33,094 nucleotides of DNA, from positions 1-33,094 of the IMG/VR virus record IMGVR_UViG_3300045988_132076. One strand, 5' to 3'. Both the position numbers and the translations under genes were made by a program. Under the pieces are notes generated by a model. The model worked only from the letters and a program-made list of their open reading frames with translations, did no database searches and was not told the DNA's origin. Positions 10,070-33,094 of this stretch are shown here, in pieces. This DNA is from a virus. The number at the start of each line of letters is the position of its first letter. The first letter of the stretch is position 1.

Positions 10070-11428
10070 ATGAATATTACAATCGATTACATGCCGAATG
10101 TGCGGCAAGATGAATTTCATATGTGCAACGCTCCGTATGCGGTTTACGGTGGTGCCAGAGGCGGTGGCAAGACCAAAGCGTTAGTAATGGATTGTCTCGC
10201 TTATTGTCTTGAGCATAGCGGCTGTAATGCGTATTTGTTCCGAGAAACATATCCGAATCTTGAAGCAAACGTAATAAGAGAGTGGAAACGCTCAGTGCCG
10301 AGAGAGTTATACGAGTATTCAGAGCAAAAACACATTGCTACTTTGATAAACGGATCTAAAGTATTATTCCGATACGTTCGTACAGAGAAAGACGCAGAAA
10401 CGTACCAAGGTCAAGAGTTCGACTACCTTGGCATTGACGAATTGACGAAGCACACGGAGCGAACAGCCGAGTTATTAACGGCGTGTCTTCGTTCGTCTCG
10501 TGGATTCCCTGTCCGCTTCCGAGGTTCGTGTAATCCCGGCGGCAAGGGTCACGGATGGGTTAAGCGTAAATACGTCGAAGCAACCGAATACGGTAAACAT
10601 GAAGTTATCGACAAGACAACCGGATTAGAAAAGATGTTTATCCCGGCTCGTGTTTATGATAACGATGTTTTAATGAAGAATGACCCGAATTACGTAAAGC
10701 GTCTTGAAGCGTTGCCGGAGCAAGAGAAGAAAGCGTTCTTATACGGTGACTGGGATGTATTTATTGGACAAGTTTTTACGGAGTTCAATAGAGATAAGCA
10801 TGTAGAAGAACCGTTTACAATCCCTGACGATTGGATAAAAGCCCGCTCGATGGACTGGGGTTTTTCTAAGCCGTTTTCTATTCATTGGTACGCGATTGAT
10901 TATGACGGTATAGCTCATTGTTACCGTGAATATTACGGCTGCACAGGCGAACCGGATGAAGGGTTAAAGCTAACACCGGATGAAGTAGCTGCCGAAGTCG
11001 TGCGATTATCGGGTAATGAACGATATACGTATGATGTCGCTGATAAAGCGATATGGCAAAAAGACGACCGTATGAAATGGAGTATCCAAGGTGAAAGCAT
11101 AGCTGAGATATTTGAGCGACACGGGATTTACTTCACTCGCTCTAATTCTGAACGTATTGCGGGTAAACTCATGGTTCATCAGTATTTAAGGGAAGAGAAA
11201 ATAAAATTCTTCTCGACGTGTAAGCATATGTTAAGAACACTACCGGAGCTTGTGTATGATGAGTCAAAACCTGAAGACGTAGACACAACTCAGGAAGATC
11301 ATGCATATGATGAGCTGCGGTATTTCTGTATGAGCCGGCCGATTAAACCGACACGACCGAAGAAGGAATTTAGCGACGGATATAAAACGATAGACGACAG
11401 TGAAGAGGTGACAGTATGGGGAATTTAA
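10070..11428 (+). CDS. terL: Terminase large subunit
   Basis: Walker A GGARGGGKT, Walker B-like YLGIDELT, 452 aa, followed by the portal gene. Confidence 0.9.
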   Translation: MNITIDYMPNVRQDEFHMCNAPYAVYGGARGGGKTKALVMDCLAYCLEHSGCNAYLFRETYPNLEANVIREWKRSVPRELYEYSEQKHIATLINGSKVLFRYVRTEKDAETYQGQEFDYLGIDELTKHTERTAELLTACLRSSRGFPVRFRGSCNPGGKGHGWVKRKYVEATEYGKHEVIDKTTGLEKMFIPARVYDNDVLMKNDPNYVKRLEALPEQEKKAFLYGDWDVFIGQVFTEFNRDKHVEEPFTIPDDWIKARSMDWGFSKPFSIHWYAIDYDGIAHCYREYYGCTGEPDEGLKLTPDEVAAEVVRLSGNERYTYDVADKAIWQKDDRMKWSIQGESIAEIFERHGIYFTRSNSERIAGKLMVHQYLREEKIKFFSTCKHMLRTLPELVYDESKPEDVDTTQEDHAYDELRYFCMSRPIKPTRPKKEFSDGYKTIDDSEEVTVWGI

Positions 11429-13419
11429 AGGGCTTTGATATAGAAGCGGCACGGAGACGGGTAAAAAGTGCGTTGAGTGCTACTAGTGATTGGCGAGAAC
11501 GAGCCAAAGAAGATTACGAGTTTATGCAAGGTAAGCAATGGGCTGACGCGGATTTATCGCGTATGAAGAAAGCGGGAAGACCGGCAATTACGATTAACCG
11601 AATCCGACCGGTTATAAATCTGTTATGCGGATATGCAGCACAAAACGAGACGGAACCCGACTTTTTACCAAGGTCCGAAGAAGACGATAGAATAAGCCGA
11701 GTCGCAAAAGGGATTACTAAGTATTGTCTTGACCGTGCAAATTATCAGCGAACGAAAAATAAATGCTTCAGAGATAAAGTTATATGCGGTCTCGCTAACT
11801 ACTGGATTACGTACGACTTCGATTATTCAAGACTTGACGGCACTATTAAGATTGACAGAGTTAGCCCGTTTGACGCGTTTATAGACCCTGAATCACAACA
11901 AGAAGATTTGAGCGACGCTCAGTATTGCGGCCGTTACTCGTGGGAAAGCCCTGATAAACTACGGCAAATATACAGCGACAAGCAGAAAGAAATAGACACG
12001 CTACAACATAAGCTTGATAGCACTGAAACAGCTGTTGACACGATAAATACGGAAAAACTTTGGTATGATACCGACTTCAAGAAAGTACGAGTTGTTCAGT
12101 ATTGGTATAAGGAATATAAGACTCAAGAAGTCTATATGACCAAAGAAGGCGTTGTTACAGAAGATAATCCGTTATTTATACAGCTTAAAGCGACAGGAAC
12201 GCAGCCGACAACGATACCGAAGACGGTTATACAATATGCGACGTTTTGCGATGATGTATTGTTGGAAGACGGCGAAAGCCCGTACAAGCATGGAAAATTT
12301 CCGTTAGTGCGTGAATATTGTTATTACACCGGGGAACTGTCAGACGCTGAATTAGAACCCGCGGGCGTTGTTCGAGATATAAAGGACGCACAGCGGGAAC
12401 TAAACAAGAACCGCAGCCAACGTATGCACGTTGTCAATCAACAGTCGTTAGGAGTTAAATTCTGGACTGGTGTCGTTGATGAGCAGTTAAAGAAGACAAT
12501 AAAGGAAAAAGCAACAACGCCTGGAGCAAACATATTCCTACCGAACGGCGTAAGTTATCAAGACGGTACACCCGCTTATGACAGTTCAGTGAATATAAAT
12601 CTTGAGCAACAATCAAGCAATGATTTTTATTCTATTAGCGGCATAACGCCTGAATCATTAAGTGGTAGCGTTGGAGCCATGAGCGGTAAGGCGATCGACT
12701 TACGTCAGTCAGTAACGACAGTGCAGACAGCGGGAATATTCGACCAGACGAAGGAAACAGAACGGCAGATTGTTCAGCTTCTATGGGGCGAAAAGAACGC
12801 TGAAGGACTTATACCACAGTTTTATAATCAAGATAAAGTAATGCGGATACTGGGCGATGACGGGCAAAAAGAATTTATACAGATTACGCCGAATTTAGGG
12901 CAACCTATGCAAGAACAATTTGCGGTTGACCCGATGACAGGAATGCCGAAAACAGACGAAGACGGCAACCCGATTAAGAAAGTATTGTATGACCTTTCTT
13001 GCTTTGATTTTGATATCGTCATTACAACTTCTCAAGCGTCTGCAACGGCACGACGGGCAAACTTGTATCAACTGCTTGAAGCGAAGAAATCAGGCGTTGA
13101 TATTCCTATGGATATTATTCTCGACTTCATGGACTTCCCCGAAAAAGAAAGCGTTAAGAAGAGAATGCAAGAGGCGGCAGAACAGCCGAATTTGCCCGAC
13201 GTACGTATAAACGGACGGCTTGCGGATTTACCCGCTGAAGCGTTAAGTACAGCCCTTTCTAGCATTGGCGTACAGATGTCTCCTGAAGAGATATTGCAAG
13301 AACGGTTAGCAATGAAAGGGTACGCACCGCCGCCGCAGATACAACAGCCGCAAGGCGTGCAACAGTTAGGGCAAGACCAGCAACAAATGCAGTTATTGCA
13401 GAATATGCAACAACTATAA
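11416..13419 (+). CDS. Portal protein (667 aa) with a Q-rich C-terminal tail
   Basis: Position after terL. EDYEFMQGKQWADADLSRMKKAGRPAITINRIRPVINLLCG is a typical portal N-terminal motif. The C-terminus is PPPQIQQPQGVQQLGQDQQQMQLLQNMQQL. Confidence 0.85.
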   Translation: MGNLKGFDIEAARRRVKSALSATSDWRERAKEDYEFMQGKQWADADLSRMKKAGRPAITINRIRPVINLLCGYAAQNETEPDFLPRSEEDDRISRVAKGITKYCLDRANYQRTKNKCFRDKVICGLANYWITYDFDYSRLDGTIKIDRVSPFDAFIDPESQQEDLSDAQYCGRYSWESPDKLRQIYSDKQKEIDTLQHKLDSTETAVDTINTEKLWYDTDFKKVRVVQYWYKEYKTQEVYMTKEGVVTEDNPLFIQLKATGTQPTTIPKTVIQYATFCDDVLLEDGESPYKHGKFPLVREYCYYTGELSDAELEPAGVVRDIKDAQRELNKNRSQRMHVVNQQSLGVKFWTGVVDEQLKKTIKEKATTPGANIFLPNGVSYQDGTPAYDSSVNINLEQQSSNDFYSISGITPESLSGSVGAMSGKAIDLRQSVTTVQTAGIFDQTKETERQIVQLLWGEKNAEGLIPQFYNQDKVMRILGDDGQKEFIQITPNLGQPMQEQFAVDPMTGMPKTDEDGNPIKKVLYDLSCFDFDIVITTSQASATARRANLYQLLEAKKSGVDIPMDIILDFMDFPEKESVKKRMQEAAEQPNLPDVRINGRLADLPAEALSTALSSIGVQMSPEEILQERLAMKGYAPPPQIQQPQGVQQLGQDQQQMQLLQNMQQL

Positions 13420-17941: not shown

Positions 17942-17944
17942 CCT

Positions 17945-19345
17945 ATGGCATATAAAGAAAAATACGCACTTGATATAACGCCTCAAGGCGATACAGTGCG
18001 GCAAAGTATTAAGAAGAACCGGGACGAAATATTAGAAGTCGCTAGAACAGTAGAACTAAAAAGCGGCGGCGGTGCGACGGGTCTCCGCAATAGATTTCTT
18101 AACGGCAAGATAAGCAACGGGGAATATTCCTTTTTAACAGGGGATAACCTAGGCGTAACGCTCGACGGAACACAAACGCCCGTAATTGTATCGTTTGCAG
18201 ACGGGTATAACGAGTTTGGGGCAGTTGATTACGTGGCGTCTATTGATAGTAAGGTGAGTGCTTGGAGTTTGCTGCCTAATAAAACGCAGTACATATATGT
18301 AGAGCGGACTGGAAGCGGTGCCGTAAGTTATGGCAGTACAACCGTAAAGCCAGTACGACAGTCAACACCGCCTGATACGGGTTTAAACGCCATGTACTAC
18401 AACGACATTATGGACATGATGTACGTATATAACGGATCTCAATGGGAACGTAAGCAACGTGTACTTATTGCCGAAGTAGTAACGGACGGGTCAAGCGTAA
18501 AGACCATTAAATATTATCAGCCGAGTATGAACGGAAGCGGCATTGCGACAGGCTCTATTACAAGTACGCAAATTGCTAACGAGGGCATTAAATCCGTAAA
18601 TGTTGGGAGCGGAGAAGTAAAGGCGGTAAACCTTGCGGACAAGTCCGTAACCAAAGCAAAGTTAGCAGATGACACGTTAAAGCATATAAACGACGCTGAC
18701 AACGCTGTTAGAAGTGACCTAACCAGTCATAAAGCCGACACAGCCGCACATAAGCCGATATTTGACGGATTTGTAAAGTCTGCGGCTTATGACAACGGCA
18801 AGTTAAAAGTAACTCACGGAAGCGGCACAATTGACAGCGTCAACATTATTACAAGCAATGCCGATGACACAAACTTGTCATTAGGCGTTTCGCTTGGTGC
18901 TGTTAATTCGATTATTTCGGCTCTTCATATTAAAGACGGTAATGACGTTGTACAAGCATTGGGGAATACAGGGCTATCGTCTATCGGTATGGAATTTAAT
19001 ACGAGCAATCCCGACTTATGGTATATGAAATTCGGCAAGGCGTTTCACAATTTCACCATACAGGGCGGTAAACGACAGGTTGGGAAACAGGTTGATACAC
19101 GTAATGACCCTATGATATTTCCTCGCCAAACATTCGCTACTGCCTTTAGTGATAAATGTTTGTGGATGGGATTCACCATTACACCTGTTGCCAATGGAAC
19201 GTATGGACGCTTTTGGGGGAATTCAGCCGCTTCCGTATTTGCTCGCGAAATGAACAAAACCGATTTCACGTATGAAGTTCATTCTATGCTTGAAGGGATG
19301 TTGCTCGAAACGGCAACAATGAAATGGATCGCCGTGGGGGTATAG
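17945..19345 (+). CDS. Tail fibre / receptor-binding protein
   Basis: GSITSTQIANEGIKSVNVGSGEVKAVNLADKSVTKAKLADDTLKHI is the short repeat common in phage fibre shafts. 466 aa in the tail module. Confidence 0.55.
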   Translation: MAYKEKYALDITPQGDTVRQSIKKNRDEILEVARTVELKSGGGATGLRNRFLNGKISNGEYSFLTGDNLGVTLDGTQTPVIVSFADGYNEFGAVDYVASIDSKVSAWSLLPNKTQYIYVERTGSGAVSYGSTTVKPVRQSTPPDTGLNAMYYNDIMDMMYVYNGSQWERKQRVLIAEVVTDGSSVKTIKYYQPSMNGSGIATGSITSTQIANEGIKSVNVGSGEVKAVNLADKSVTKAKLADDTLKHINDADNAVRSDLTSHKADTAAHKPIFDGFVKSAAYDNGKLKVTHGSGTIDSVNIITSNADDTNLSLGVSLGAVNSIISALHIKDGNDVVQALGNTGLSSIGMEFNTSNPDLWYMKFGKAFHNFTIQGGKRQVGKQVDTRNDPMIFPRQTFATAFSDKCLWMGFTITPVANGTYGRFWGNSAASVFAREMNKTDFTYEVHSMLEGMLLETATMKWIAVGV

Positions 19346-19776: not shown

Positions 19777-21255
19777 ATGATATTTAACTTACAGCTTTTC
19801 GGCGGTGGCGGTAAAAAGTCTAAAGTATCGCACACTGAAGCCCATCTGCCTGAAGCAAGCGTTGAAGAAAAAGGGTTACTTCAAAACCAGTTAAACTGGA
19901 TTAACGGGGCAAACGCTAGTGCTAATAGGCTTCAGGGTATGGGAGACGGGGCATTAAATAACGCCGTAACGCCGAATTATCAAGACATGTATAACAATTA
20001 CTTGGCTGCCAATAACGGCAACCAAAACGCACTGGCAGCACTACAAAATCAAGTATCATCTGCAGGGACAAGGAACCTTACGGATAATACAAAGTATGCT
20101 CAACAACTTGGGGCGGCAACGGACGGAATGGTAAATAACGCCGACAGTCTAGCCAACGAGTATAACGGAGCGGTACTAAAGAATCAGGCCGCCATGAACG
20201 ACATTACTCAAGGCAATATCCCTGAAGCATACGCAAAGGCACGGCAGACGGCGTTAAATAACGATTTACAAAGTACCGTTGGCAACGCGTTATCAGGCTT
20301 GGCTAGTCGCGGGATTATCAACTCATCACAGGCCGACAGTGCTATCAATGACATATCCAAAAACGCAACGAACGCACTGGCAGCACAATACACGCAAGAT
20401 ATTAATACGGCGGCTAACCTCAACAATCAAGCTTATACCAACGCTTTGAATGGCATTGGAGCAAAAATGAATTTGTGGGGCAACCAATTCAATAACCAAC
20501 AGTCTGGAATTATGAATCAGGCGGCGTTAATGAATCAGGGCTACACCAACCAGGTAAACAATGCGGGAACAGCTGCGGGACTTGTCGGACAGCGTGAAGG
20601 ATTGGCAGCCGCTCCGATTAGTACAGGCAGTTCGACACAACAGGCGGCAATACAGCCGGCTAAAGATTATTACACCATGGCACAGCTTAACAACTCTGAT
20701 AATGAGGATTTGTTAAAAGCCTACATGCAAGGACGTTATGGATTAGCCGCACCCGCACAAACGACAGTGCGACAAGGAAGCGGCGGATTTTTAGGGGGAT
20801 TTATGAGCGGATTTTGTTTTGCAAAAGGCACAGAAATAGCAACGATTGAGGGTAGTAAACCGATTGAAGAGGTTGTTACAGGTGATAAAGTTGTATCCCT
20901 TGGAAAAGTGCTTAACGTTATCGCTATGCATGAAATGGGAGAATCTCCGACGGTACGACTTAACACGGAAGATACAGGCGTGGTTACTACCGCCAGTGAA
21001 AAGGTACTTACTAACGACGGATTGAAACTTGTATCTGAAGTTGAAGTTGGCGAGCATATTATGACGGTACATGGCTGGCAGAAGATCACAAGTAAGGAAG
21101 ACACAGACATTACAGAAGCGGTATATGAACTTGAATGTGACGGGGATAATCTGTTTTACGCTAACGGTATCTTAGCCGAAGGGATTAGCCAGGAAGAGTT
21201 ACAGGCCTTGAATGATGGCGAAAAGAAGAAAGGCAGTAAGAAAGGAGAAGCCTAA
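19777..21255 (+). CDS. Virion (probably ejected) protein with an L27-like N-terminal motif, an N/Q-rich body and a C-terminal Hint domain
   Basis: The N-terminus is MIFNLQLFGGGGKKSK. Residues 347-463, CFAKGTEIATIEGSKPIEEVVTGDKVVS...LFYAN, fit the Hint/intein-like fold pattern. Confidence 0.7.
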   Translation: MIFNLQLFGGGGKKSKVSHTEAHLPEASVEEKGLLQNQLNWINGANASANRLQGMGDGALNNAVTPNYQDMYNNYLAANNGNQNALAALQNQVSSAGTRNLTDNTKYAQQLGAATDGMVNNADSLANEYNGAVLKNQAAMNDITQGNIPEAYAKARQTALNNDLQSTVGNALSGLASRGIINSSQADSAINDISKNATNALAAQYTQDINTAANLNNQAYTNALNGIGAKMNLWGNQFNNQQSGIMNQAALMNQGYTNQVNNAGTAAGLVGQREGLAAAPISTGSSTQQAAIQPAKDYYTMAQLNNSDNEDLLKAYMQGRYGLAAPAQTTVRQGSGGFLGGFMSGFCFAKGTEIATIEGSKPIEEVVTGDKVVSLGKVLNVIAMHEMGESPTVRLNTEDTGVVTTASEKVLTNDGLKLVSEVEVGEHIMTVHGWQKITSKEDTDITEAVYELECDGDNLFYANGILAEGISQEELQALNDGEKKKGSKKGEA

Positions 21256-22799
21256 TGAGTACGATTTATTTACAGGACTTTGAGCCGTGGGCGGCACTTG
21301 GTAAGCTTGCGGGAATGTACGCAACTCACAGACTGGGACAGCTAAACGAAAACAACATGGCTAAAGGGCTTAATGATGTTCTTGGCGGTAGTGGAAATGG
21401 ACAGGCTGCAGATAAAACAGCCGTTGTAGATGACGGACGTAACGGATTATGGAATCAGTCGTTACCTGCTTCGCAATTTAATGCGGGGCAGTATATGAGT
21501 AACTCCCTTCGTAGTCAAATCGGTAATGGAAGCGGTGGATTGTGGGGATTCGGCCAAAGTCAGAACACAACGCCTATTACTCAAGCGGCACAGGCTACAC
21601 CCGTAACACCTACGCCGACGGCAACCGCACAGCCGATACAAAACAGTAATGCCGACACGACGGCGGCACCGGCTGCATTTACTTCGACCCCTTCGTTTAG
21701 TCAGCGTGGCGGGTTATGGGGGTTTGGCCAAACACAACCGCAACAGCCGCAAGGGTATTTGGGCATGGTAACGGGGAATCCGAATTTTTTCGGTAATGCG
21801 TCCCGCGAGGTAGATAGCACTGATACGGATAACAAGACGCAACAGGACAAGCCTGGCTATCAAGTTCCGAACAAGAGCGATATTATCAAGGACGCACGGA
21901 AGCGGCTAGGGGCTGACGTATTAACACTCGTTAAATCGGGCATGGACTTTAAAACCGCCAAGGGGATCGCCGAGGAACTCTATAATACCGATGTGAACAA
22001 CGAGTACACCAAACAGGCTAATGCGTTCTCCGATAACGTTCTTGCACCTATGCGTAATCAAATCATACAGAGCCTTATTTACACTAAGGATAAGGACGGT
22101 AATACGGTTGTTGATACGTATAATTCGCAGAAGGTTAAGGGCATAGCCGCAGCCGTCGATAGGTACAATTACTATGCTAATAAAATAGGTGCTGAAAAGA
22201 TTGACATGAACAACCTCAACAGCATTTACGCATTGCATGATGATTATAAGTTCCAACAGATGAGTAACGGACACGTTGCCCGGTTCAACATGACCCAAGG
22301 CACAATTGACGATGTTGGCAACTACGCAAAATCTAACATGCAGCAAGCACAGAACGGCCAAATGTTCGTAATGACGGATGACGGAAAAATACAGAACCTT
22401 GGTAACTTCGGTAAGAAAAATATCAAGGTCATGAATGACGGCACGGCTTACATGGTAGGGGCTGACGGGTCTATGAAGTACGTTGGTAAATACGTTGACC
22501 CGACGAAAGCGGCAACGGCGAGAGCAGCACAGCAAAACGCAGCCGTTAAAAACCTCGTTACATTACATAAGGCATGGCAATCAAGCCACCCTGGAGAAGA
22601 CGAGTCTGAAAGCCCGTATTATGCTAAGCTTAGAACGTCTATGGGCTTGGCTAATCCGACGTACTCCGAGGAAGAGCAACAACAAGTTGCTGATAGAATT
22701 AACCAGTTAAAAGCGTCAGGTGTATCGTCAGCACAGATTAAATCCGAGTTAATCGCGAAGGGGCTTAACAGGTACGCCGACTGGGTGCCTGATGATTAA
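21255..22799 (+). CDS. Virion/ejection-module protein of unknown function (514 aa)
   Basis: TAATG overlap and AAGGAGAA SD. The N-terminal half is low-complexity, with GGLWGFGQ occurring twice. Position is the only basis for the suggested role. Confidence 0.45.
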   Translation: MSTIYLQDFEPWAALGKLAGMYATHRLGQLNENNMAKGLNDVLGGSGNGQAADKTAVVDDGRNGLWNQSLPASQFNAGQYMSNSLRSQIGNGSGGLWGFGQSQNTTPITQAAQATPVTPTPTATAQPIQNSNADTTAAPAAFTSTPSFSQRGGLWGFGQTQPQQPQGYLGMVTGNPNFFGNASREVDSTDTDNKTQQDKPGYQVPNKSDIIKDARKRLGADVLTLVKSGMDFKTAKGIAEELYNTDVNNEYTKQANAFSDNVLAPMRNQIIQSLIYTKDKDGNTVVDTYNSQKVKGIAAAVDRYNYYANKIGAEKIDMNNLNSIYALHDDYKFQQMSNGHVARFNMTQGTIDDVGNYAKSNMQQAQNGQMFVMTDDGKIQNLGNFGKKNIKVMNDGTAYMVGADGSMKYVGKYVDPTKAATARAAQQNAAVKNLVTLHKAWQSSHPGEDESESPYYAKLRTSMGLANPTYSEEEQQQVADRINQLKASGVSSAQIKSELIAKGLNRYADWVPDD

Positions 22800-22800
22800 T

Positions 22801-22835
22801 AGAAGGGGCGTTTATAACGTCCCTTCTTGTTTATA
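22801..22835 (+). terminator. Hairpin / weak terminator upstream of the giant gene
   Basis: AGAAGGGGCG / loop TTTATAA / CGTCCCTTCT forms 10 bp including one G-U pair, then TGTTTATAT. Confidence 0.5.
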
Positions 22836-22851: not shown

Positions 22852-25800
22852 ATGGGAGCGTTTGATAACCTTTTTCCGAACGAACAAGATAGTTTAAATT
22901 ACACACCGCAAGGGTATTTTGATGATATTGTAGAAAACGGTATCATTCAGCAGCAGTTAGCCCAACAAGCGGCACAACAGCAAGCACAACAAAGCGGCGG
23001 CGGATCTATTATTGATGGAATCGCCAACAACGTGGAGTACGTAAAAAACGGCATTGCGAACAATGTAGAATACGTGCAAAACGGGTTTGATAATGCCGCA
23101 AAGGCGGCCGCTGACCAAGCAGAAACAACGTTAACTAATGTAGGGAATACGATAAAAGACTGGGGAAACAATGTAAAAAACGCCTGGGATAATTACAATT
23201 ACCAAGTCGGGAACGCTGTTATTAATGCGGCTAACGAAAACGGCGGCGTTGTTCCTATGGTTGTATCTGATGACCCTGAAGCAACTCTTACGCAGTATGG
23301 CGGTACAGACTACACCAACGCACGAAGAAACTTATATAACGAAGCTATCGGCAAGCCCGCCGCCAATCTTGCTATTACTCCGTTCATGCCGACACCTATA
23401 CGAGCAGTAGCCGGGATTGCGGCCGCTCCGATGATTGCGGGAGACCTTGCAGAGATTGCAACGCAAAACGCTGAAGCTAAGGCCAACGGAGAAGCACCCG
23501 AAGGAATTATGGGGAACCCTGTCATAGCAACGGCAAAACAGTTTGCGATAGACCCGATTATAGACCCTGTAACACGTGCAGTAAGCGACCCTTCTGGGTT
23601 TATTGGTAATATCGTCGATAATCCTACTAACCTTTGGAGCGATGTATTTTTGCCCGTAGAGTTAACCAAAGGGGCAGTACCCAAAGGAGTAAAAGAGGGC
23701 GTTTATAATAAAGTCTCTGATGTAATCCCTGAACGAGTTGGCGAGATTAAAGAAAAGATAGGCGAAGCGGCAGAAAATGTACGTAATAAAGCGGCGGGAG
23801 CATTTGACGATATAGGTAGAAACGAAATCAAAAGCGAAACGCCTGAACTTGCAGCCGCATACGAACCGCAAGGAATGTTTGAAGGGGTTATTCCTGAAGA
23901 AGCTGTTAGCGATTATGTATCACCTGAACGCCCTGAAGGCGGTTACGAAGAAACGGGAAATCTTCAGAATGACATTTATAACCGTTACCGTGCGGCGGGA
24001 TTCACAGACGTGGAAGCGGCAGCCCTTACGGGTAATATAGGAGCAGAAAGTAGTTTTGATACGAGAGTCGTAAGCCATGACGAATATGGATCAGAAGGGC
24101 TAATTCAATTTACAGATGACAGGCTACAGGGATTAAAGGACTTCGCAGCAGAAAAAGGGCTTGACCCTTATGATTGGAAAACGCAAATTGATTTCTCTAT
24201 CCACGAGTTAACAGAGGGAAATGAAAGAGCCGCATTAAATGCTATGCGAGAACACCCCGACGCAACGCCGGAAGAAATGGCTGTTATTGTTCGTAGGGAA
24301 TATGAAAGACCTAATCCCAATGTAGCCAGAGACGAAGAACGTCAACGTATAGCCCGAGAAACTTTTGATGGCAATTATGGTGATTACAAGAGTACGCCGA
24401 GAAACGGAGTTTCCGAAAACGGTGAATCTCGTCGAATCCAACAGGCTGAAAAGGAAATTCCTCATGAAATCGTGGAAAGCGATAAAAACAATTCTCAAGT
24501 AAGCGGAGATAAAGAAAATTTAAATATTTCGGCAAAAAACGACCTCGTAGAATCATATTTAAGCCATGCTAAAGATGACTTGAATATGAATACTAGTACT
24601 GATGATACAAACGGCGTTAGAAGTGAAAAAAAGGCGGTTTTTGACGATTCAGCCGAAAATAACGCAAAAAAAGAGGTGACAAGTCAAAATATTGACATAT
24701 CACCTGAAAAATTAGCAGAAGAAATTAATAAATCGCCTAAAATTATGGATTCATTCCGAACATATGACATTGATGAACTTAGGCGGTACGAAGAAATGTC
24801 ATGGAAAGATGTAAATCAAGAAGTAAAGAAAAACATTCTTGATTTAAAAGCTGGCGTTATTGACCCGTTGGGGAATTTAGTAAAGTTTGTATATAACACT
24901 GCGAATAAAAAGAGCTTGGATGGATTGGCCAATCATTTGTATATGGGGTCTAAAAAAGCAGAACGTCATCCGAGCAAGTTAAGAGGGTTTGCAACTCAGC
25001 TTATAAAAGACACTTTGGCTAATCCTGACGTAATATATGGACAGGAAAACGGGAATTATAGATATGTAGGGTTCTTGCGAGGGGAACGGAACTTATTGCA
25101 TTCTGTTATTGTTTCAGTCGAAGATGGCAAGGTAAGCAAAATTATTACATCGTTTGCTCATGATTATAGTACTGGGCGTGGAGAAGGTGGAATTGACGCA
25201 AAAAAAACGCTCAATCCTAAAGATGGGGATACACGTGTAACTAACGTTATACACGTTAAACCCGAAATTAGGAATGAGCTTAGTACCCGACAGTCGGAGC
25301 GTCCCCCGCAGGCAACCAGTGATAGTGCCGCATTGTCTGACGCTAGACCCGACACATCTGGTAATTCAAGAGTAACAGATGAACTAGGGAAAGTCAATGA
25401 TAAAGATTTGGAATATAACGTTAGCAATAATAACACCCCTACAGGAGAAGGCGTTGAGCGACTGGGACGGCCTGTTACACGACGGGAAATTATTAATACC
25501 GTTAATGACTTATTTGACCAACGTGTAAAATCGGGACGGCTTGGCAAGCGTAAAGACGTTCTTGGGTGGTATAACCGCATGACGGAAGTAATCCGTACTC
25601 GTAATTTTGGGGATATAAATACGCTTATGCATGAACTTGGTCATCACGTAGATCATAAGAACGGATTCAGCATTAACCCGAAGTTTAACGCAGAATTTTC
25701 TAAGGTTGTACATGAACGCTTCGGCAAGGTGTATGACAAGTTAGGCGATGAAGGTATCCGCAAAGAAGGCTATGCCGAGTTCTTCCATGATTACGTAAGC

Positions 25801-28386
25801 GACCGAAACAAGGCAAAAGCCGACTTCCCTACGTTTTACGACCACTTCACGGAACGACTGGCGAAGGATAAAGAATTAAATGGAGCGATTAACAAGCTGT
25901 CCAAGGTTACGCACGAATGGTTTAAGCAAGCTCCGGAAGAACGAGTAAAGGGATCTATTTCGTTCGATGACGGGAAATTATCCACAAGAATCAAAGACAT
26001 TTCTGACAATGGCGGGTTCAAAGAAAAGCTTTCAGATTTAGGGCATAGCTTGTATACGCATACTGTTGACGAGTTACACCCGTTTGAACAGTTAATGAAG
26101 GAAGTAAACGAGCAAATCGGAAAGGAAATCCCTTTTGAAAACGACGTATATAAACAGGCTTGGTTATTCAGAGGTGCGACGGGCAAGGCTCAAGCCCTCG
26201 TTGAATTTGGCGATAAGGCGGCAGGAGTTAAAGGGCTTAAAGCTATACTAGAACCTATCGGAATTAAAGAGCGTAAAAACTTTAGTGCTTACCTTGTGGC
26301 CAAGCATGATTTAGATTTCCATGCAAATGGACAAAAAGCGACGTTTTCTAAGGCTGAAGACGTGGCAACATTACGTAAGTTCGAAAAGAACGAAACGTTC
26401 AAAAAGGCAGCCGACGAATTACAGAAATACCAACAGCACTTATTACAACAGCTTGTAAAATCAGGCATGTTAAAGCCTGAAATATACGCTGAGCTTGTCA
26501 AGAAGTATCCGAATTACGTGCCGTTCTTCCGCGACTTTAAAGCGGAAAGCATGGACGGGTTCCTTGCAAGCAGTAAGGGATTTATTAACGTAGCAAGCCC
26601 CATTAAGAGATTCAAAGGGTCAACACGGGATATTATTGACCCGTTACAAAGCATTTTGCGTAATACGTACCAGTTTACAAGCGCTATTGAACGCAATAAA
26701 GTAGCTCAAAACTTCGCGAAACTTGCCGATATTCACGGCATGGGGCGTATCGTTGAACAGGTTAAAGAGGGTTCGGCAAGGGCAACGGATAATACTTTTA
26801 CAGTATGGCAACGTGGCCAAAAGGTAGTATACGAAACAACTCCCGAACTAAAAGCAGCCTTAGAAATGAGCGATAAAAACGCAAGTAACTTGCTTGTAAG
26901 AATCATGCAAACGCCCGCAAGTTGGTTAAGAGCCGGGGCAACGTCTACAACAGGGTTTGCATTAGCCAACCTTGTGCGAGATAACGTAAGTGCGGCAATC
27001 TTCTCTAAGCATGGGTATTTACCTGTATTTGATACGCTTAAAGGCGTTTCGCAATTCATCAAGAAAGGCGAATTGTATCAAGAATACTTGCGTTCCGGTG
27101 CTTCGGGTGCGGCCATGGTTTCGCTTGACCGTGACTATATGGGCGGTCAAATCCGCGAAATACTGAGGAAAGAACCGACATGGCAGAAGGTTGTAAAGAA
27201 CCCTATCGAAGTAATGCGGGCGATCTCCGAAGCGTCCGAAATAAGCACACGTCTTGCCGAGTATAACAATGCTCGAAAAGGGTATACAGGCCTTGCCAAT
27301 AGGCTTTTTGGTAGTGAACGTAAATCACTCACACCGCAACAAGCAGCCCTTGAAGCCCGTGATATTACTATCGACTTTAGCCGTATAGGGAAGAACACCA
27401 AGACAGCTAATAGGGTTGTAGCGTTCTTTAATGCCGCTGTTCAAGGGGCTGATAAGCTTCGCAGAGTGTGGAAGGAAGACCCTGTAGGGGCTTCTATTCG
27501 TGCTACTTTGTTTGTAACTATTCCTACGGTTGCGTTATGGCAGCTCAATAAGGATAACCCTGAATATCAGGAACTTCCGCAGTATGTCAAGGATACGTAT
27601 TGGATTCTTCCGAGTGGTGATCACTTAATCAAGATTCCTAAGCCGTTCGAATTGGGCGTATTGTACGGGACAAGCGTTGAACGCATGTTACAGTGGATGG
27701 ACGATAAAGAACACGGACGAAAGGGAATAGGCTTTAAAGGGTACGGCGAACGAGTAGCCGACGTGCTTACGCCGAGTGTTATGCCGACGGCGTTTATTCC
27801 TATTGCAGAATGGGCGGCGAATTACTCATTCTGGCGTCAGAAGAGTATCGTACCGCAAGCACAACAAGACCTTCCCGACGCATTACAGTACGGTCAAAAT
27901 ACGTCAGCAGTAGCGAAGGGGATAGGGTCACTATTTAATGTATCTCCGTATAAGGTTGACAACACAATTAGAGGATACGGCGGTAACCTTGCGACGCTTG
28001 GACTTACGGCGATAGACGCAGCCACTGGCGAAACCGCAAACAGACCCGCAAAACGTTGGTATGAACTTCCTGAAATTAGTAAATTTACTGCAACACCGTA
28101 TCAAGGAAGCAACAGCGTACAACGGGTATATGATGACTTCGACGCACAGAACAAATTATTTAATGAAGCAAAGATAACCAAGAAAAAACCTGAAGACTTT
28201 GATGTACGCCAATTTGGGAAACTCAAAGAAGCAAGGGAACAGCTCACGAAGTTATCAAGAGCAAGCAAGGCAATTATGAACAATGAGAACATAAGCGGAG
28301 AACAGAAGCGTGAGCAATTAGATCGCTTTAACGTTCTCAAAGCCAATATTGCCCGTAGAGTGTACGGGTACGACAGAGTTAAATAG
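22852..28386 (+). CDS. Polyvalent virion protein (1,844 aa): tail-lysozyme-like domain, putative PBECR-like domain, zincin HEXXH metallopeptidase and a ~900-aa C-terminal region
   Basis: AAGFTDVEAAALTGNIGAESSF...GLIQFT (about nt 23965-24320) resembles the phage tail lysozyme family. ERHPSKL...LANPDVIY...IITSFAHDY lies at about 24928-25167. HELGH (25630-25644) is followed by EGYAEFFHD (25766-25792). Confidence 0.7.
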   Translation: MGAFDNLFPNEQDSLNYTPQGYFDDIVENGIIQQQLAQQAAQQQAQQSGGGSIIDGIANNVEYVKNGIANNVEYVQNGFDNAAKAAADQAETTLTNVGNTIKDWGNNVKNAWDNYNYQVGNAVINAANENGGVVPMVVSDDPEATLTQYGGTDYTNARRNLYNEAIGKPAANLAITPFMPTPIRAVAGIAAAPMIAGDLAEIATQNAEAKANGEAPEGIMGNPVIATAKQFAIDPIIDPVTRAVSDPSGFIGNIVDNPTNLWSDVFLPVELTKGAVPKGVKEGVYNKVSDVIPERVGEIKEKIGEAAENVRNKAAGAFDDIGRNEIKSETPELAAAYEPQGMFEGVIPEEAVSDYVSPERPEGGYEETGNLQNDIYNRYRAAGFTDVEAAALTGNIGAESSFDTRVVSHDEYGSEGLIQFTDDRLQGLKDFAAEKGLDPYDWKTQIDFSIHELTEGNERAALNAMREHPDATPEEMAVIVRREYERPNPNVARDEERQRIARETFDGNYGDYKSTPRNGVSENGESRRIQQAEKEIPHEIVESDKNNSQVSGDKENLNISAKNDLVESYLSHAKDDLNMNTSTDDTNGVRSEKKAVFDDSAENNAKKEVTSQNIDISPEKLAEEINKSPKIMDSFRTYDIDELRRYEEMSWKDVNQEVKKNILDLKAGVIDPLGNLVKFVYNTANKKSLDGLANHLYMGSKKAERHPSKLRGFATQLIKDTLANPDVIYGQENGNYRYVGFLRGERNLLHSVIVSVEDGKVSKIITSFAHDYSTGRGEGGIDAKKTLNPKDGDTRVTNVIHVKPEIRNELSTRQSERPPQATSDSAALSDARPDTSGNSRVTDELGKVNDKDLEYNVSNNNTPTGEGVERLGRPVTRREIINTVNDLFDQRVKSGRLGKRKDVLGWYNRMTEVIRTRNFGDINTLMHELGHHVDHKNGFSINPKFNAEFSKVVHERFGKVYDKLGDEGIRKEGYAEFFHDYVSDRNKAKADFPTFYDHFTERLAKDKELNGAINKLSKVTHEWFKQAPEERVKGSISFDDGKLSTRIKDISDNGGFKEKLSDLGHSLYTHTVDELHPFEQLMKEVNEQIGKEIPFENDVYKQAWLFRGATGKAQALVEFGDKAAGVKGLKAILEPIGIKERKNFSAYLVAKHDLDFHANGQKATFSKAEDVATLRKFEKNETFKKAADELQKYQQHLLQQLVKSGMLKPEIYAELVKKYPNYVPFFRDFKAESMDGFLASSKGFINVASPIKRFKGSTRDIIDPLQSILRNTYQFTSAIERNKVAQNFAKLADIHGMGRIVEQVKEGSARATDNTFTVWQRGQKVVYETTPELKAALEMSDKNASNLLVRIMQTPASWLRAGATSTTGFALANLVRDNVSAAIFSKHGYLPVFDTLKGVSQFIKKGELYQEYLRSGASGAAMVSLDRDYMGGQIREILRKEPTWQKVVKNPIEVMRAISEASEISTRLAEYNNARKGYTGLANRLFGSERKSLTPQQAALEARDITIDFSRIGKNTKTANRVVAFFNAAVQGADKLRRVWKEDPVGASIRATLFVTIPTVALWQLNKDNPEYQELPQYVKDTYWILPSGDHLIKIPKPFELGVLYGTSVERMLQWMDDKEHGRKGIGFKGYGERVADVLTPSVMPTAFIPIAEWAANYSFWRQKSIVPQAQQDLPDALQYGQNTSAVAKGIGSLFNVSPYKVDNTIRGYGGNLATLGLTAIDAATGETANRPAKRWYELPEISKFTATPYQGSNSVQRVYDDFDAQNKLFNEAKITKKKPEDFDVRQFGKLKEAREQLTKLSRASKAIMNNENISGEQKREQLDRFNVLKANIARRVYGYDRVK

Positions 28387-28412
28387 GGGACGTGACAAAC
28401 GTCCCTTTTATT
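28385..28412 (+). terminator. Hairpin terminator between the giant gene and the lysis cassette
   Basis: GGGACG / loop TGACAAA / CGTCCC, then TTTTATT. It overlaps the TAG stop. Confidence 0.6.
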
Positions 28413-28430
28413 ATGCAAAGGAGAGGGCAA

Positions 28431-28964
28431 ATGAATTTTATTTTTGATACGCTTTCACACACATGGGAAACACTTACAACCAACTTTATTTTAAAGGCTG
28501 CATTGAGTGCTGCGGGCGGCCTTGCCTTATGGCTTATCGGTATCCGTCATGTGCAGATACTTGGGATTTTTATCATCCTGGTATTCGTTGATTTACTCAC
28601 TAAATGGGCAGCAATTGCCTATCAAATGCTAATTGATGAGTATCAGTACAATCCTGAAGAAATTGCAGTATGGGAAAAGTATAGGGCAATTCCTATTGCG
28701 TTCGAAAAGAAACTTATTTCAAGCCGATATATGCGTAAAGGATTTGTACAGAAGGTGTTATCTTACGTACTGGCAACATTCGCGGCGGTATTACTTGACG
28801 AAATGAGCGGACAACGCAAGTTTGCCGTTTCTCTTGTGTGGCTATACCTTGGTTCTAGTGAGTTTCTTTCAATTCTTGAAAACCTTCGCGACGGGGGCAA
28901 TGTAATGCTTGGTAAGTTTTTGGATCTGGTAAGAACAAAGATTGAAAATAAGGTAAAGTTTTAG
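28431..28964 (+). CDS. Holin (phage_holin_4_1-like)
   Basis: AAAGGAGAGGG SD before ATG 28431. Multiple TM segments and the C-terminal SEFLSILENLRDGG motif typical of this holin family. It lies immediately upstream of the endolysin. Confidence 0.75.
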   Translation: MNFIFDTLSHTWETLTTNFILKAALSAAGGLALWLIGIRHVQILGIFIILVFVDLLTKWAAIAYQMLIDEYQYNPEEIAVWEKYRAIPIAFEKKLISSRYMRKGFVQKVLSYVLATFAAVLLDEMSGQRKFAVSLVWLYLGSSEFLSILENLRDGGNVMLGKFLDLVRTKIENKVKF

Positions 28965-28977
28965 AGAGGAGACTATT

Positions 28978-29577
28978 ATGAGAGGAATTGACGTAAGCGA
29001 GAATAACGGATTTGTAGACTGGGGAACAGTCGCGGCAAACGGCTATCAGTTCGCAATTATTCGACTGGGGTACGGACGTAATACGCTTGATAGTTGTTTT
29101 TATGACAACGTAAACGGAGCGATTAACGCAGGTCTTAAAGTGGGCGTATATCATTACTCTTACGCCTTAGATGAAGACGCAGCCAATCAAGAAGCGGACT
29201 TTGTGTTGAACACTTTGCAAAGCTCCGGGCTTACACCCGATAAATTACCGCTTGGAGTTTGGTATGACATGGAAGACGCTGATGATTATAAGGCTAATAG
29301 AGGTATGCCGAGTAATCAAGAATTAACGAATTTTTGCAGTATTTTCATCAATAAATTATGGAACGCCGGATACGCCAAAACAGGACTATACGCCAATATT
29401 GATTGGCTAGAAAACTATTTATACCCTGAACAGCTTGGCGGGTGTGGTTTATGGGTTGCTCATCTCAACCCGTATTGCGGCTATCCCGGTGCTAATATCT
29501 GGCAATATACCTTTAGTGAGAATATAGAAGGCAATGAGTTTGACGCTGATATAGTTCTTGATTTCGACGTAGAATAA
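28978..29577 (+). CDS. Endolysin, GH25 muramidase, single domain (no obvious wall-binding domain)
   Basis: MRGIDVSENNGFVDWGTVAANGYQFAIIRLGYG...GVYHYSYA is the canonical GH25 N-terminus. 199 aa. Confidence 0.9.
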   Translation: MRGIDVSENNGFVDWGTVAANGYQFAIIRLGYGRNTLDSCFYDNVNGAINAGLKVGVYHYSYALDEDAANQEADFVLNTLQSSGLTPDKLPLGVWYDMEDADDYKANRGMPSNQELTNFCSIFINKLWNAGYAKTGLYANIDWLENYLYPEQLGGCGLWVAHLNPYCGYPGANIWQYTFSENIEGNEFDADIVLDFDVE

Positions 29578-30339: not shown

Positions 30340-30659
30340 AGACATCTTTAATATTAATGCTTTAAATAAACCTATTGAGCTTATATATTGATTGAATAAA
30401 GGTGTTTTTTAACGAAAGTATCCAATTTGCGTATTATGCAAATTGCTTTTTGACGGCAAAAATTCGGCAAAAATTATATGTAGATAACTGGTTTTTATGT
30501 AGTAATCGTAAAAATAAAAACTGTTGAAGTGTGATAATAATGCTATTTTGTAGCTGTATGTATATTTGCCATAATGATTGATGAAAATGTATAGTAATTT
30601 ACAATATGGCTATTATTGGCTTATTTAAAGCGATTATATGATATTAAAAAATAAAATCG
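30340..30659. other. AT-rich non-coding region next to int: candidate attP with arm-type repeats
   Basis: No ORF longer than 15 codons. Palindrome CAATTTGC-GTATTAT-GCAAATTG (30423-30445) and tandem CGGCAAAAATT x2 (30454-30475). It is adjacent to the integrase 3' end. The core site cannot be identified without the host sequence. Confidence 0.45.
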
Positions 30660-31712
30660 TCAAAAACTTTTGCTAAAAATATTAGCGACATTCTCCGCCG
30701 CCTTCATTCTCATATCGTCCGTGTAATGTACATATACTTTAATTACAGTGTTTACGTTATCGCCTAACAAGCTAGCTACGGTTTTAATATCGACTCCGTT
30801 CGCAAGTAGCTTTGTTGCATACGTATGCCGTAAATCGTGGAACGTCTTATCAGGCATAAGCTTCTTTAAAATGCGAGGGACGTACTTACTGTTTTTCTTC
30901 GGGAATAATAGGCGATCCGATTGAGTCGCTTTATATTCCCTAAGAATCTCGCATAATATAGGCGGTATGGGAATGGTTCTATAACTATTGACGGTTTTAG
31001 GTGCTGTTACTCCGAATTTCTTCGAATCAACAATAGTAACCTGTTTATTAATTGTAATGGTTTTTCCGTCAAGGTCAATATCTTCCCATGTAAGTCCTAG
31101 AATTTCACCAATGCGACACCCGGCATAATAAGCAATGGAAATCATAACACGGGCGTACCCGTCTATGTTAGAAAAAACAACCTTCATTTCTTCGTCAGAA
31201 AATGTAGAAACTTTTTTGACGCTTTCTTTACGTCTGGGTACCGCGTTAAACGGGTTTTCCCTGATAAGCTTATAAGGGCGAACGGCGTAATTCGCAATCG
31301 CTTTTAGTATTCTTAAGTATAGGTTCATAGTACTGGGGGCAATATGAATCTCATTAAATGCCCTTATCACAAGATTATGATTGATATTACGAAGTTCTGT
31401 ATTAGTAAGCATGGGGAATGACTTTAAAGCGACTCTATACATAGCTTTTGTGCTGTAGGTAAGGTTGACTTTTTCACGCAAAAAGACTTCCGCAAATTCG
31501 CCAAAGGTTATATCTCTCATATTCTCGTCAATTGGCGTTATTTGAGTTTTTAAGGCTTCTATTATCTGTTGCCCGTACTCTTTTGCTTCCCTTTGTGTTC
31601 GGAAGCCCTGCTTTGATTTTTGCCGCCATTTTCGGCCGTCTTTATACGATACTATGACCTGATAGGCGTTGTCCTTCTTACGAGTTGTTATATTACTTTG
31701 CATTATCCTCAA
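30660..31712 (-). CDS. int: Tyrosine integrase
   Basis: Arm-binding-like N-terminus (AYQVIVSYKDGRKWRQKSKQGFRTQREAKEY). Catalytic boxes YYAGCRIGEILGLTWEDID, HDLRHTYATKLL and VYVHYT. The start is TTG 31712 or ATG 31703. Confidence 0.9.
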   Translation of the reverse strand: MRIMQSNITTRKKDNAYQVIVSYKDGRKWRQKSKQGFRTQREAKEYGQQIIEALKTQITPIDENMRDITFGEFAEVFLREKVNLTYSTKAMYRVALKSFPMLTNTELRNINHNLVIRAFNEIHIAPSTMNLYLRILKAIANYAVRPYKLIRENPFNAVPRRKESVKKVSTFSDEEMKVVFSNIDGYARVMISIAYYAGCRIGEILGLTWEDIDLDGKTITINKQVTIVDSKKFGVTAPKTVNSYRTIPIPPILCEILREYKATQSDRLLFPKKNSKYVPRILKKLMPDKTFHDLRHTYATKLLANGVDIKTVASLLGDNVNTVIKVYVHYTDDMRMKAAENVANIFSKSF

Positions 31713-31923: not shown

Positions 31924-32184
31924 TCACACAACTTGGCAATAAAATTCAATCCCTTCGGCTTCCGGGATAATATCACTTCGGCGAATCATTTCTTCTATCA
32001 TGTTTGCTTGAATTTCTCTATTAAAATCATTGCTTACTATGTGGCTTAATTCGTGAACCACTTCTTTTTTTGCCTGTTCTCGTGATAACGACTTACTTAT
32101 AATTATCGAATAACTGCCGTCCTCGTTTTCTATTACAGAGGCTTTAGCGTAGGGAATAGAAGCAAATATTATATTAATTGTCAT
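31924..32184 (-). CDS. Minimal ImmA/IrrE-like zinc metallopeptidase (86 aa)
   Basis: GSYSIIISKSLSREQAKKEVVHELSHIV contains HExxH in the usual ImmA context. It overlaps the repressor 3' end by 11 nt. Confidence 0.6.
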   Translation of the reverse strand: MTINIIFASIPYAKASVIENEDGSYSIIISKSLSREQAKKEVVHELSHIVSNDFNREIQANMIEEMIRRSDIIPEAEGIEFYCQVV

Positions 32185-32620: not shown

Positions 32621-32662
32621 ATTTATTACTCCTTTATAACAACCCGACGATAATTTAATGAC

Positions 32663-32691
32663 AATATAGCCCATTTCTGCCTGACCGTCAA
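32663..32691 (-). promoter_or_regulatory. Leftward promoter of the repressor operon
   Basis: On the minus strand: TTGACG (32691-32686), a 17-nt spacer, then TATATT (32668-32663). The spacer carries a TTCTGCCT motif (32675-32682). Confidence 0.6.
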
Positions 32692-33002: not shown

Positions 33003-33094
33003 AAGGCAGAAAGGAGAAAAACACATGAAAGAAAGAAGTATTGCGTTCGGTTGGGCTGGGTTTCCCGCTGAACACGCCCAATCATTGAGAAGGA
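32976..33094. repeat. Terminal overlap, copy 2 (identical to 1-119)
   Basis: See copy 1. Confidence 0.9.

Follow-up and report, generated by a model that had tools for sequence, protein, structure and literature searches.

A 1,844-residue, cysteine-free polyvalent protein encoded before the lysis genes of a small temperate phage with relatives in Megasphaera-type bacteria

The virus record IMGVR_UViG_3300045988_132076 (IMG/VR) was analysed from position 1 to position 33,094; this whole stretch of 33,094 nucleotides (nt) is called the window. It carries a giant open reading frame (ORF), which runs uninterrupted from an ATG at 22852 to a TAG at 28386 and takes up 16.7% of the window. A preliminary description, made by eye from the letters alone, had read its product as a single virion protein of the polyvalent class, in which lysozyme-like, toxin-nuclease-like and zincin modules are joined to some 900 residues of unknown function; the motif positions given there were all reproduced exactly by script. 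We find that the giant protein is a further member of the class of phage-type polyvalent proteins described in 2017. Much of the comparison below uses a related prophage, here called L003, which is 92-93% identical to the window at the DNA level across 16.6 kb and whose giant protein, P0070, is 85% identical to that of the window. The features of the giant gene are listed with amino acid (aa) numbers of the protein; pLDDT is the predicted local distance difference test of the AlphaFold2 (AF2) models.

22852..28386, plus strand: giant ORF, 1,844 aa, zero Cys, phage-type polyvalent protein (ORF list, translation, relatives of equal length)
22852..23961, plus strand: N-terminal region, aa 1-370, with a Q-rich stretch (aa 32-48), a repeat (23020-23085) and an Ala/Gly/Pro segment (aa 185-203)
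23020-23052 and 23053-23085: repeat copies IANNVEYVKNG (aa 57-67) and IANNVEYVQNG (aa 68-78)
23965..24369, plus strand: tail-lysozyme module, aa 372-506 (Pfam PF18013 Phage_lysozyme2, E=1.1e-23)
24019-24057: motif AALTGNIGAESSF
24046-24048: candidate catalytic Glu399
24097-24114: motif GLIQFT
24370..24728, plus strand: acidic low-complexity linker, aa 507-626, predicted to be disordered (pLDDT 23-30)
24729..25446, plus strand: hypervariable cassette, aa 627-865, without DNA similarity to L003 between similar flanks
24952-25161: PBECR2-like (BECR-fold nuclease-like) core of the cassette, aa 701-770
24961-24981: motif ERHPSKL
25141-25167: motif IITSFAHDY
25480..25956, plus strand: zincin-like metallopeptidase, aa 877-1035 (HELGH at 25630-25644, D934, E972/E976 at 25765-25779)
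25630-25644: motif HELGH, the sole HExxH of the giant protein
25765-25791: motif EGYAEFFHD
25978..28383, plus strand: conserved, mostly helical C-terminal module, aa 1043-1844, including LPD38
27559-28071: Pfam LPD38 (PF18857), aa 1570-1740 (E=4.3e-46, 157.8 bits against a cutoff of 27)

In a collection of 5.8 billion proteins, 1,153 matched the giant protein at E<=1e-5; among them are over 100 metagenomic relatives, 1,750-1,844 aa in length, that are 53-95% identical to it over their full length. In view of these relatives, the ORF is not a sequencing or assembly artefact. A megablast search with the giant gene returned zero matches among cultured phages, so that it has no close cultured relative, and a scan of the GTDB species representatives found no close relative of the protein either. 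The whole protein had no match among PDB sequences, and a search against NCBIfam gave nothing relevant. The relatives P0036, P0068 and P0099 (nr) and the BFVD entry A0A8S5RE05 carry the public name "Type I restriction enzyme Methylase". Domain searches show no methylase domain in the close relatives, and this identity was rejected for them; the label most likely spread from Vibrio and Shewanella phages, whose homologs carry a methylase fused to the C-terminal module.

Phage-type polyvalent proteins were defined in 2017 by Iyer, Burroughs, Anand, de Souza and Aravind (J Bacteriol, PMC5512222), who treat lysozyme, PBECR2 and LPD38 as domains found only in this class and the zincin as its hub. 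The LPD38 domain confirms independently that the giant protein belongs to this class, as had been proposed, and lysozyme2, the PBECR2-like segment and the zincin are found in the same ORF. Moreover, it is a single multi-domain polypeptide with an LPD domain, encoded in a late, virion gene context that is also seen in its relatives.

The lysozyme-like module recognised in the preliminary description is upheld by the agreement of a Pfam profile, a fold match and an aligned Glu residue. Phage_lysozyme2 scored 84.4 bits against a curated cutoff of 28.2, and positions 3-138 of the 140 in the profile were covered. The AF2 model of the N-terminal part is poor overall (pLDDT 47.8) and usable only at aa 370-510 and 615-800, and the Foldseek queries were multi-domain models, which reduces the sensitivity for sub-domains. 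Within these bounds, the lysozyme part of the model matched the N-domain of phi29 gp13 (3csr) with E=8.8e-4, a probability of 1.0, a template modelling (TM) score of 0.64 and a root-mean-square deviation of 3.5 Å. In a phmmer alignment with gp13, which is not significant alone (E=0.29), E399 lies opposite the Glu at residue 45, presumably the catalytic Glu of gp13, while GLIQFT pairs with GLVQWT and YERP with YERP. E399 is invariant among 25 relatives. The 2 proteins thus have the fold and the motifs GNxxxES, GL[IV]Q[FW]T and YERP in common; they differ in that phi29 gp13, 365 aa long, belongs to the tail tip and has a peptidase as its second domain, whereas the lysozyme of the window is an internal module of an 1,844-aa protein.

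The zincin, which had been read from HELGH and the downstream EGYAEFFHD, is borne out by the near-universal HExGH...D...EGxAEF pattern, a predicted zincin core and weak matches to lethal factor and reprolysin. HExGH is kept in 129 of the 130 diverse representatives in which the zincin part aligns. Across 24 diverse sequences, G905, R915, H927, E928, G930, H931, E972 and G973 are invariant and D934, A975, E976 and F977 nearly so, which is the gluzincin pattern of an HExxH followed by a Glu on the next helix. In the AF2 model (pLDDT 82-96 in this part), a helix at the N-terminus is followed by beta strands and then by the consecutive helices that bear HExxH and the Glu. A profile search of the PDB found anthrax lethal factor (2l0r, E=0.63) with both motifs aligned, and Foldseek found lethal factor with a probability of 0.35-0.44 (E about 2). 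In Pfam, ATLF, Reprolysin_5, Zn_peptidase and M43 were matched by 3-7 of the 24 members, with ATLF giving the best E-value (0.0021) and Reprolysin_5 the largest number (7/24). These matches are weak and mutually consistent, and none is significant alone. Lethal factor also served as the template with which Iyer et al. unified the zincins of polyvalent proteins, and an Asp three residues after HExxH, described there for a widespread phage-type zincin clade (PMC5512222), is present in the window zincin as well. It deviates from the described polyvalent zincins in that strand 2 ends with an invariant Arg instead of a His, and only 1 of the 24 members matched Pfam MPTase-PolyVal (E=0.033).

The remaining ~900 aa had been set down as a large region of unknown function. 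The region is in fact a catalogued and very widespread zincin plus LPD38 module. PHROG 9854, whose function is not annotated, covers aa 893-1837 (E=1.4e-151). With aa 860-1844 as the query, HMMER retrieved 15,088 proteins at E<=1e-3, 6,234 of them at E<=1e-30, from 1.84 billion cluster representatives. The best 150 matches are 758-4,034 aa long (median 1,710), and the match ends no more than 20 residues from the C-terminus in 130 of the 161 proteins examined. At about 90 positions, many of them charged or polar, identity across the module family reaches 85% or more. The AF2 model of aa 860-1844, built on a 58-sequence alignment, is confident (mean pLDDT 85.4, predicted TM score 0.80). Foldseek against BFVD gave 80 matches at E<=1e-3 with TM scores of up to 0.81, and every named one among the 50 matches listed was a large polyvalent or LPD protein or a fusion thereof. 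Among these was gp25 of PTXU04 (2,198 aa), which shares the C-terminal module by both sequence (tblastn, 3e-38) and structure (Foldseek, 2e-38). Against the PDB, the same model gave insignificant helical-bundle and transporter matches and local matches to lethal factor. A T7- or P22-like ejectosome fold was rejected, as no ejection protein was found among the Foldseek PDB matches at E<=10.

In the relatives, the N-terminal partners of the module are diverse and include SLT, ART-PolyVal, RelA/SpoT, DdrB-ParB, methyltransferase and Sno-type helicase domains, as well as PBECR1/3, GGDEF, InPase, RadC and DnaJ. A clade of Page-like Bacillus phages has retained aa ~1050-1840 and lost the zincin. The LPD38-containing module also occurs in the pelagiphages HTVC010P (NC_020481), HTVC204P and Lederberg (MT647605, MW273926), at 27.6-28.8% identity.

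The strong conservation of this module could mean that it is itself the main enzyme or effector, acting on targets in the envelope or the cytoplasm, with the N-terminal modules as accessories. The ~90 near-invariant residues, many of which remain charged or polar across 15,000 clusters (R1360, N1373, R1376, D1377, D1394, D1426, R1427, E1463, D1508, N1527, K1597, E1610 and N1657), and the invariant catalytic motif of the zincin would suit such a role. In addition, the authors of a study of phage phi24B suggest that the metallopeptidase attacks peptidoglycan (bioRxiv 10.64898/2026.04.10.717836), and the PTXU04 homolog is essential: knock-down of gp25 by CRISPRi-ART strongly reduced plating and showed that the gene is needed for plaques (PMC11879866). 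However, no catalytic fold is recognised in the module apart from the zincin, Page-like phages have the helical module without it, and in the clade of the window a Gln replaces the near-invariant Glu1266. We regard this possibility as distinctly unlikely; it overlaps with the packaged and ejected protein that we favour below, and does not exclude it.

The most variable part of the giant protein lies between the lysozyme and the zincin. Aligned with L003, the window DNA shows 93% identity as far as nt 24728 and 92% from nt 25447 onwards, with no detectable similarity in between. Against 80 close relatives, the protein identity is 0.9-0.99 almost throughout and falls to 0.13-0.56 at aa 601-880. 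As identity collapses between these similar flanks, aa 627-865 form a sharply bounded replacement cassette. Eleven divergent alleles of this cassette all keep G668, R711, T721, P725, D726 and Y738. Position 752 is occupied by either His or Arg; 10 of the 11 have Thr or Ser at position 766, and the eleventh has a Thr one position earlier.

A segment of this cassette had been likened to the Barnase-EndoU-ColE5/RelE-like (BECR) nuclease modules of polyvalent proteins, known as PBECR. PBECR2 is indeed the top Pfam family for 9 of the 11 alleles and no other family recurs, while all of these matches stay below the cutoff. The recurrence of the sub-threshold match speaks for the likeness and the failure to reach the curated cutoff against it, and a PBECR-like identity of the cassette is no more than plausible. 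In the AF2 model, helices, among them one at 707-723, precede a four-stranded sheet with strands at 727-731, 736-743, 748-757 and 760-771 (pLDDT 60-87). The best Foldseek match other than lysozymes was the CdiA-CT toxin-immunity complex 6cp9 (probability 0.84, E=0.15), a complex that contains one of the BECR-fold tRNase toxins. The RelE-like RNase BrnT followed with a probability of 0.44, and NTF2-like folds compete at lower probability. A profile of the cassette also retrieved leucine-rich-repeat proteins from the PDB; these were rejected as spurious, the score being a sum of many sub-significant matches to a short LxxLxNGVxDxL-like motif.

The arrangement resembles that of polymorphic toxins such as CdiA-CT and Rhs, in which a constant delivery part is combined with a sharply bounded, variable nuclease-like cassette. 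It differs from them in that the cassette of the window is internal rather than C-terminal, no adjacent immunity gene was seen, and the delivery proposed here is by a phage particle.

Upstream of the lysozyme, aa 1-370 matched no family in Pfam or PHROG. Long helices are predicted there with very low confidence (AF2, pLDDT <50), and aa 185-203 are rich in Ala, Gly and Pro and moderately hydrophobic by hydropathy. In the nearest clades (P0134-P0152 and a clade of 1,753 aa), the region is kept and is always N-terminal. The 2 copies of the 11-aa repeat differ at 8 of 33 nt, with 7 synonymous sites and 1 non-synonymous site, and at only 1 of 11 aa, so that the repeat is preserved at the protein level; Tandem Repeats Finder, run on the DNA, left it undetected. 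This divergence implies an old duplication in which the peptide was kept by selection. N-rich near-repeats continue to about aa 130, and together with the 11-residue period they hint at an amphipathic helical repeat. For the acidic linker at aa 507-626, no homolog was found beyond the close family.

Outside the giant gene, the window contains the following features.

9498-9956: small terminase (PHROG/Pfam)
10070-11428: large terminase (PHROG/Pfam)
11416..13419, plus strand: P22-type portal (Pfam P22_portal PF16510, E=2.4e-101; PHROG 156 portal, E=1.5e-102)
14491-15462: major capsid protein (PHROG/Pfam)
17945-19345: tail-fibre-like protein (PHROG/Pfam)
22801..22827, plus strand: terminator-like stem-loop (12 bp) and T-run immediately 5' of the giant gene (-18 kcal/mol; identical in L003)
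28385..28407, plus strand: terminator-like stem-loop and T-run overlapping the stop codon of the giant gene (scan; kept in L003)
28432..29577, plus strand: holin and GH25-type endolysin, directly 3' of the giant gene (PHROG holin and endolysin matches)
28978-29577: GH25-type endolysin (PHROG; Glyco_hydro_25 in the relative L003)
30660-31712, minus strand: integrase
32174-32674, minus strand: repressor-like regulator

The window phage is small and temperate, and its layout is that of a short-tailed phage of the P22 type. The giant gene had been said to lie where podoviruses carry their ejection proteins, directly before the lysis genes, and this position holds: a P22-type portal is encoded upstream, and the holin and endolysin follow directly downstream (in L003, the corresponding gene calls match Pfam Phage_holin_4_1 and Glyco_hydro_25). 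The podovirus context is also backed by synteny with gp20 of phage Page and by PHROG and Pfam searches, which found no tape-measure, tube or sheath protein among the window proteins.

Several smaller observations concern the surroundings of the giant gene. The mechanical start of the holin ORF, a GTG at 28392 (28392-28964), falls inside the downstream hairpin; the true start is more likely the ATG at 28432, which gives 177 aa, has AAAGGAGAG just before it and is the start called in L003. The downstream hairpin differs in L003 by one compensatory base-pair change, from U-A to C-G, and both bracketing hairpins have the arm ACGTCCCTT in common. Possibly these hairpins limit how much transcription reaches the giant gene and the lysis genes. 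In the tail region, a 492-aa ORF (19777-21255) matches Pfam Hint_2 at aa 347-379 (E=2e-7, 31.8 bits against a cutoff of 28.4) and has weak intein-splicing matches close to its C-terminus; it may contain an autoproteolytic Hint domain within a virion protein. The 514-aa ORF just 5' of the giant gene (21255-22799) has zero Cys and no family match, and could encode a second internal or ejected protein.

The prophage L003 lies on a 71-kb contig, where it adjoins rpmG-secE-nusG-rplKAJL. The NusG encoded beside it shares 100% identity with its counterpart in Megasphaera micronuciformis F0359, and from this NusG we assign the host as a Megasphaera-type Negativicute, an assignment made through the ~93%-identical relative prophage and not through the window contig itself. 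Negativicutes are Firmicutes with an outer membrane and are thus bounded by two membranes. The similarity between the window and the integrated relative ends at about window position 30602, just before the integrase gene (L003 junction 17803-18026), and the attachment site probably lies near 30602-30660. The related prophage is flanked by a sodium:dicarboxylate symporter gene and by rpmG-secE-nusG, and no tRNA gene was found when looked for at the integration junction. The literature on Megasphaera phages yielded nothing specific.

Position and composition both bear on where the giant protein acts. Its gene closes the structural block, with holin and endolysin next. Homologs in 3 further contigs, with 33-37% identity in the module, occupy the same position and are followed by lysis or lysogeny genes in each; SU10-type adaptor genes are present in 2 of these 3 distant contigs and long-tail genes in none. 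Cys is absent from all 1,844 residues of the giant protein, whereas it makes up 0.91% of the residues in the remaining 29 window ORFs (P about 5e-8). In 149 diverse relatives, 56 Cys were counted among 265,284 residues, and 114 of the 149 are Cys-free. The same absence characterises T7 gp15 (0/747), T7 gp16 (0/1,318), the N4 virion RNA polymerase (vRNAP; 0/3,500) and N4 gp51 (0/644); the DNA polymerase, primase and helicase of N4 contain 1.1-1.4% Cys. Furthermore, phi24B gp47 (2,811 aa; LPD5, LPD1, LPD38 and MuF-C) was abundant in virions by mass spectrometry and absent from the shell and tail density in cryo-electron microscopy, and its authors propose that it is an ejection protein (bioRxiv 10.64898/2026.04.10.717836). 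By analogy with these proteins, we infer that the giant protein is packaged in the virion and ejected. The essentiality of PTXU04 gp25 fits a core function in infection better than a dispensable anti-defence role.

A lysozyme whose only solved relative is a tail-tip enzyme could also belong to an external structural protein, comparable to phi29 gp13 or to the lysin domains of tape-measure proteins, which stays mounted on the tail and is not injected. PHROG 9570, annotated as tape measure, matches aa 333-541, and the giant gene comes after tail-fibre-like genes, as might be expected of such a "tail lysin". However, PHROG 9570 matches the lysozyme domain alone, no genes for a tube, a sheath or a tape measure were seen here or in relatives, and the RNase-like effector of the window, like the ART, RelA/SpoT, methylase and helicase domains of the relatives, would make no sense outside a cell. 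Moreover, the LPD38 protein of phi24B is in virions and missing from the resolved tail and capsid density, and the lack of Cys matches internal, ejected proteins. We consider a tail-mounted protein unlikely. An identity as the tape measure itself was rejected, given that PHROG 9570 covers only aa 333-541, that tube, sheath and chaperone genes are lacking, and that the portal is of the P22 type.

A further possibility is a protein that never enters the virion and is made late in the cytoplasm for anti-defence or host takeover, its place in the structural operon reflecting timing only. Many N-terminal partners in the relatives are anti-restriction-like (methylase, ParB, helicase), and the terminator-like hairpins on either side mark the gene as a unit of its own. 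Yet anti-defence effectors are needed at entry rather than late, the lysozyme domain would have no substrate in the cytoplasm, and distant relatives also have the gene at the end of the structural module. Taken with the detection of an LPD38 protein in phi24B virions and the Cys-free signature, this leaves a purely cytoplasmic protein very improbable.

The best explanation for the whole is, in our view, a head-packed and ejected polyvalent protein that combines a lysozyme, a zincin-LPD38 chassis whose zincin cuts, and an RNase-like cassette, and we hold this to be probable. The protein would be synthesised late and packed into the capsid of a P22-portal-type temperate phage of Megasphaera-like bacteria, to be expelled through the tail ahead of or together with the DNA. 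In this process, the constant C-terminal ~985 aa (HExGH zincin and helical LPD38 module) would act as a chassis for entry into the virion and exit from it, possibly helping to build a passage for the DNA across the two-membrane envelope. The lysozyme module, with its phi29 gp13-type fold, would cut peptidoglycan at the site of entry. The cassette at aa 627-865 would be a BECR-fold, RNase-like effector, directed immediately after entry against the RNA of the host or of rivals, and would diversify through an arms race. The zincin would most likely cleave the polyprotein at the disordered linkers, freeing the modules to reach different destinations. Self-cleavage, the RNase activity and the channel role are what we infer from the modules rather than what we observe.

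Several observations weigh against parts of this explanation. PBECR2 (PF18810) reached 19.8 bits with the whole protein and 24.1 bits (E=4.3e-5) with the isolated segment, the latter being the best score among the 11 alleles; the cutoff is 27.1. His706 varies among the alleles, although a His is typical of 5 of the 6 PBECR families, and its place is taken by the invariant Arg711. The PBECR active site pairs a His of the N-terminal helix, or an Arg in one family, with a C-terminal Thr or Ser. This Arg-type family is mentioned by Iyer et al. (PMC5512222), and Arg711 with Thr/Ser766 would fit an active-site configuration of that type. The closest solved relative of the lysozyme, phi29 gp13, sits outside at the tail tip and not in the head. 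The lack of Cys is suggestive and not specific, since Cys is likewise missing from the small terminase, putative scaffold and holin of the window phage. The C-terminal module has no solved relative by Foldseek or profile searches against the PDB, hhalign of the module against the last 1,400 aa of N4 vRNAP (its encapsidation region) gave a probability of 0.13, and the module contains no classical transmembrane helix, the best hydropathy over 19 residues being 1.4-1.5. Since it resembles neither the solved T7 ejection proteins nor any PDB entry nor the N4 region, its role as chassis or channel is argued by analogy. Finally, the window protein has Gln1266 (codon 26647-26649) where 150 of 162 relatives have Glu, turning DPLESI into DPLQSI. 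Close relatives carry Gln1266 as well, and other near-invariant positions are altered too, with T1367 in place of Pro, and Y1605 and W1661 in place of Phe.

A broader version of the head-packed, ejected protein would make the ~985-aa zincin plus LPD38 module a universal device of many short-tailed phages, which in a single polypeptide ejects the DNA and delivers cargo. It would be equivalent to the T7 gp14-16 and P22 gp7/20/16 sets without being related to them, and would carry swappable N-terminal "warheads"; in the Megasphaera lineage, the BECR-like warhead at aa 627-865 would be swapped by recombination in the manner of polymorphic-toxin tips. We offer this generalisation tentatively and consider it rather doubtful.

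Among known systems, the polyvalent proteins of Iyer et al. are the closest in kind, as they too are giant multi-domain polypeptides encoded among virion genes with a zincin as hub. The text of that article consulted here describes neither the present order of modules, in which an N-terminal helical region is followed by lysozyme2, the hypervariable PBECR2-like cassette, the zincin and LPD38, nor a Negativicutes host for it (PMC5512222). Like the window protein, gp47 of the Stx phage phi24B and gp25 of the E. coli phage PTXU04 are giant podovirus proteins bearing LPD38, but their N-terminal effector sets differ from it and their hosts are enterobacterial. A BLAST search with the window protein did not recover phi24B gp47, and the link between the 2 is made only through the LPD38 domain reported by the gp47 authors. 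The gp20 protein of the Bacillus megaterium podophage Page (1,679 aa; relatives in Palmer, Pony and Pookie) is 29-30% identical over aa ~1050-1838, is encoded immediately before the holin and is Cys-free. In contrast to the window protein, it has no HExxH zincin, and the lytic enzyme is encoded by a separate upstream gene, Page_19, a "lytic tail protein".

T7 gp15 and gp16 and N4 vRNAP (gp50) are large, Cys-free proteins that lie inside the capsid and are ejected before the DNA, and a comparable working mode is proposed for the window protein. T7 gp16 also begins with a peptidoglycan hydrolase (SLT), and a zincin has been reported for N4 vRNAP (PMC5512222). The window protein nevertheless stands outside the T7 and N4 families, with no T7 or N4 match from Foldseek against the PDB and the hhalign value of 0.13 for the N4 C-terminus; it is not a member of the T7/P22 ejection-protein families or of the tape-measure families.

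In an infected cell, polyvalent proteins are believed to be the earliest phage products at work, and to our knowledge almost none of them has been studied experimentally. The window protein offers a compact example from an abundant, human-associated phage lineage of Negativicutes. The new elements are the assignment to a host lineage, the extent of the zincin-LPD38 module and its strict position at the C-terminus, together with a confident model of it that has no solved relative, the recombinational hypervariability of the cassette, and a Cys-free signature common to proven ejected proteins. These additions do not overturn current ideas. The cassette alleles within near-identical proteins form a natural series suited to mapping the target of the arms race, and the Cys-free composition could offer an inexpensive way to predict which phage proteins are injected. 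Should the C-terminal module prove to be an ejection device, it would explain the way in which many podoviruses without T7- or P22-type ejection genes cross the cell envelope.

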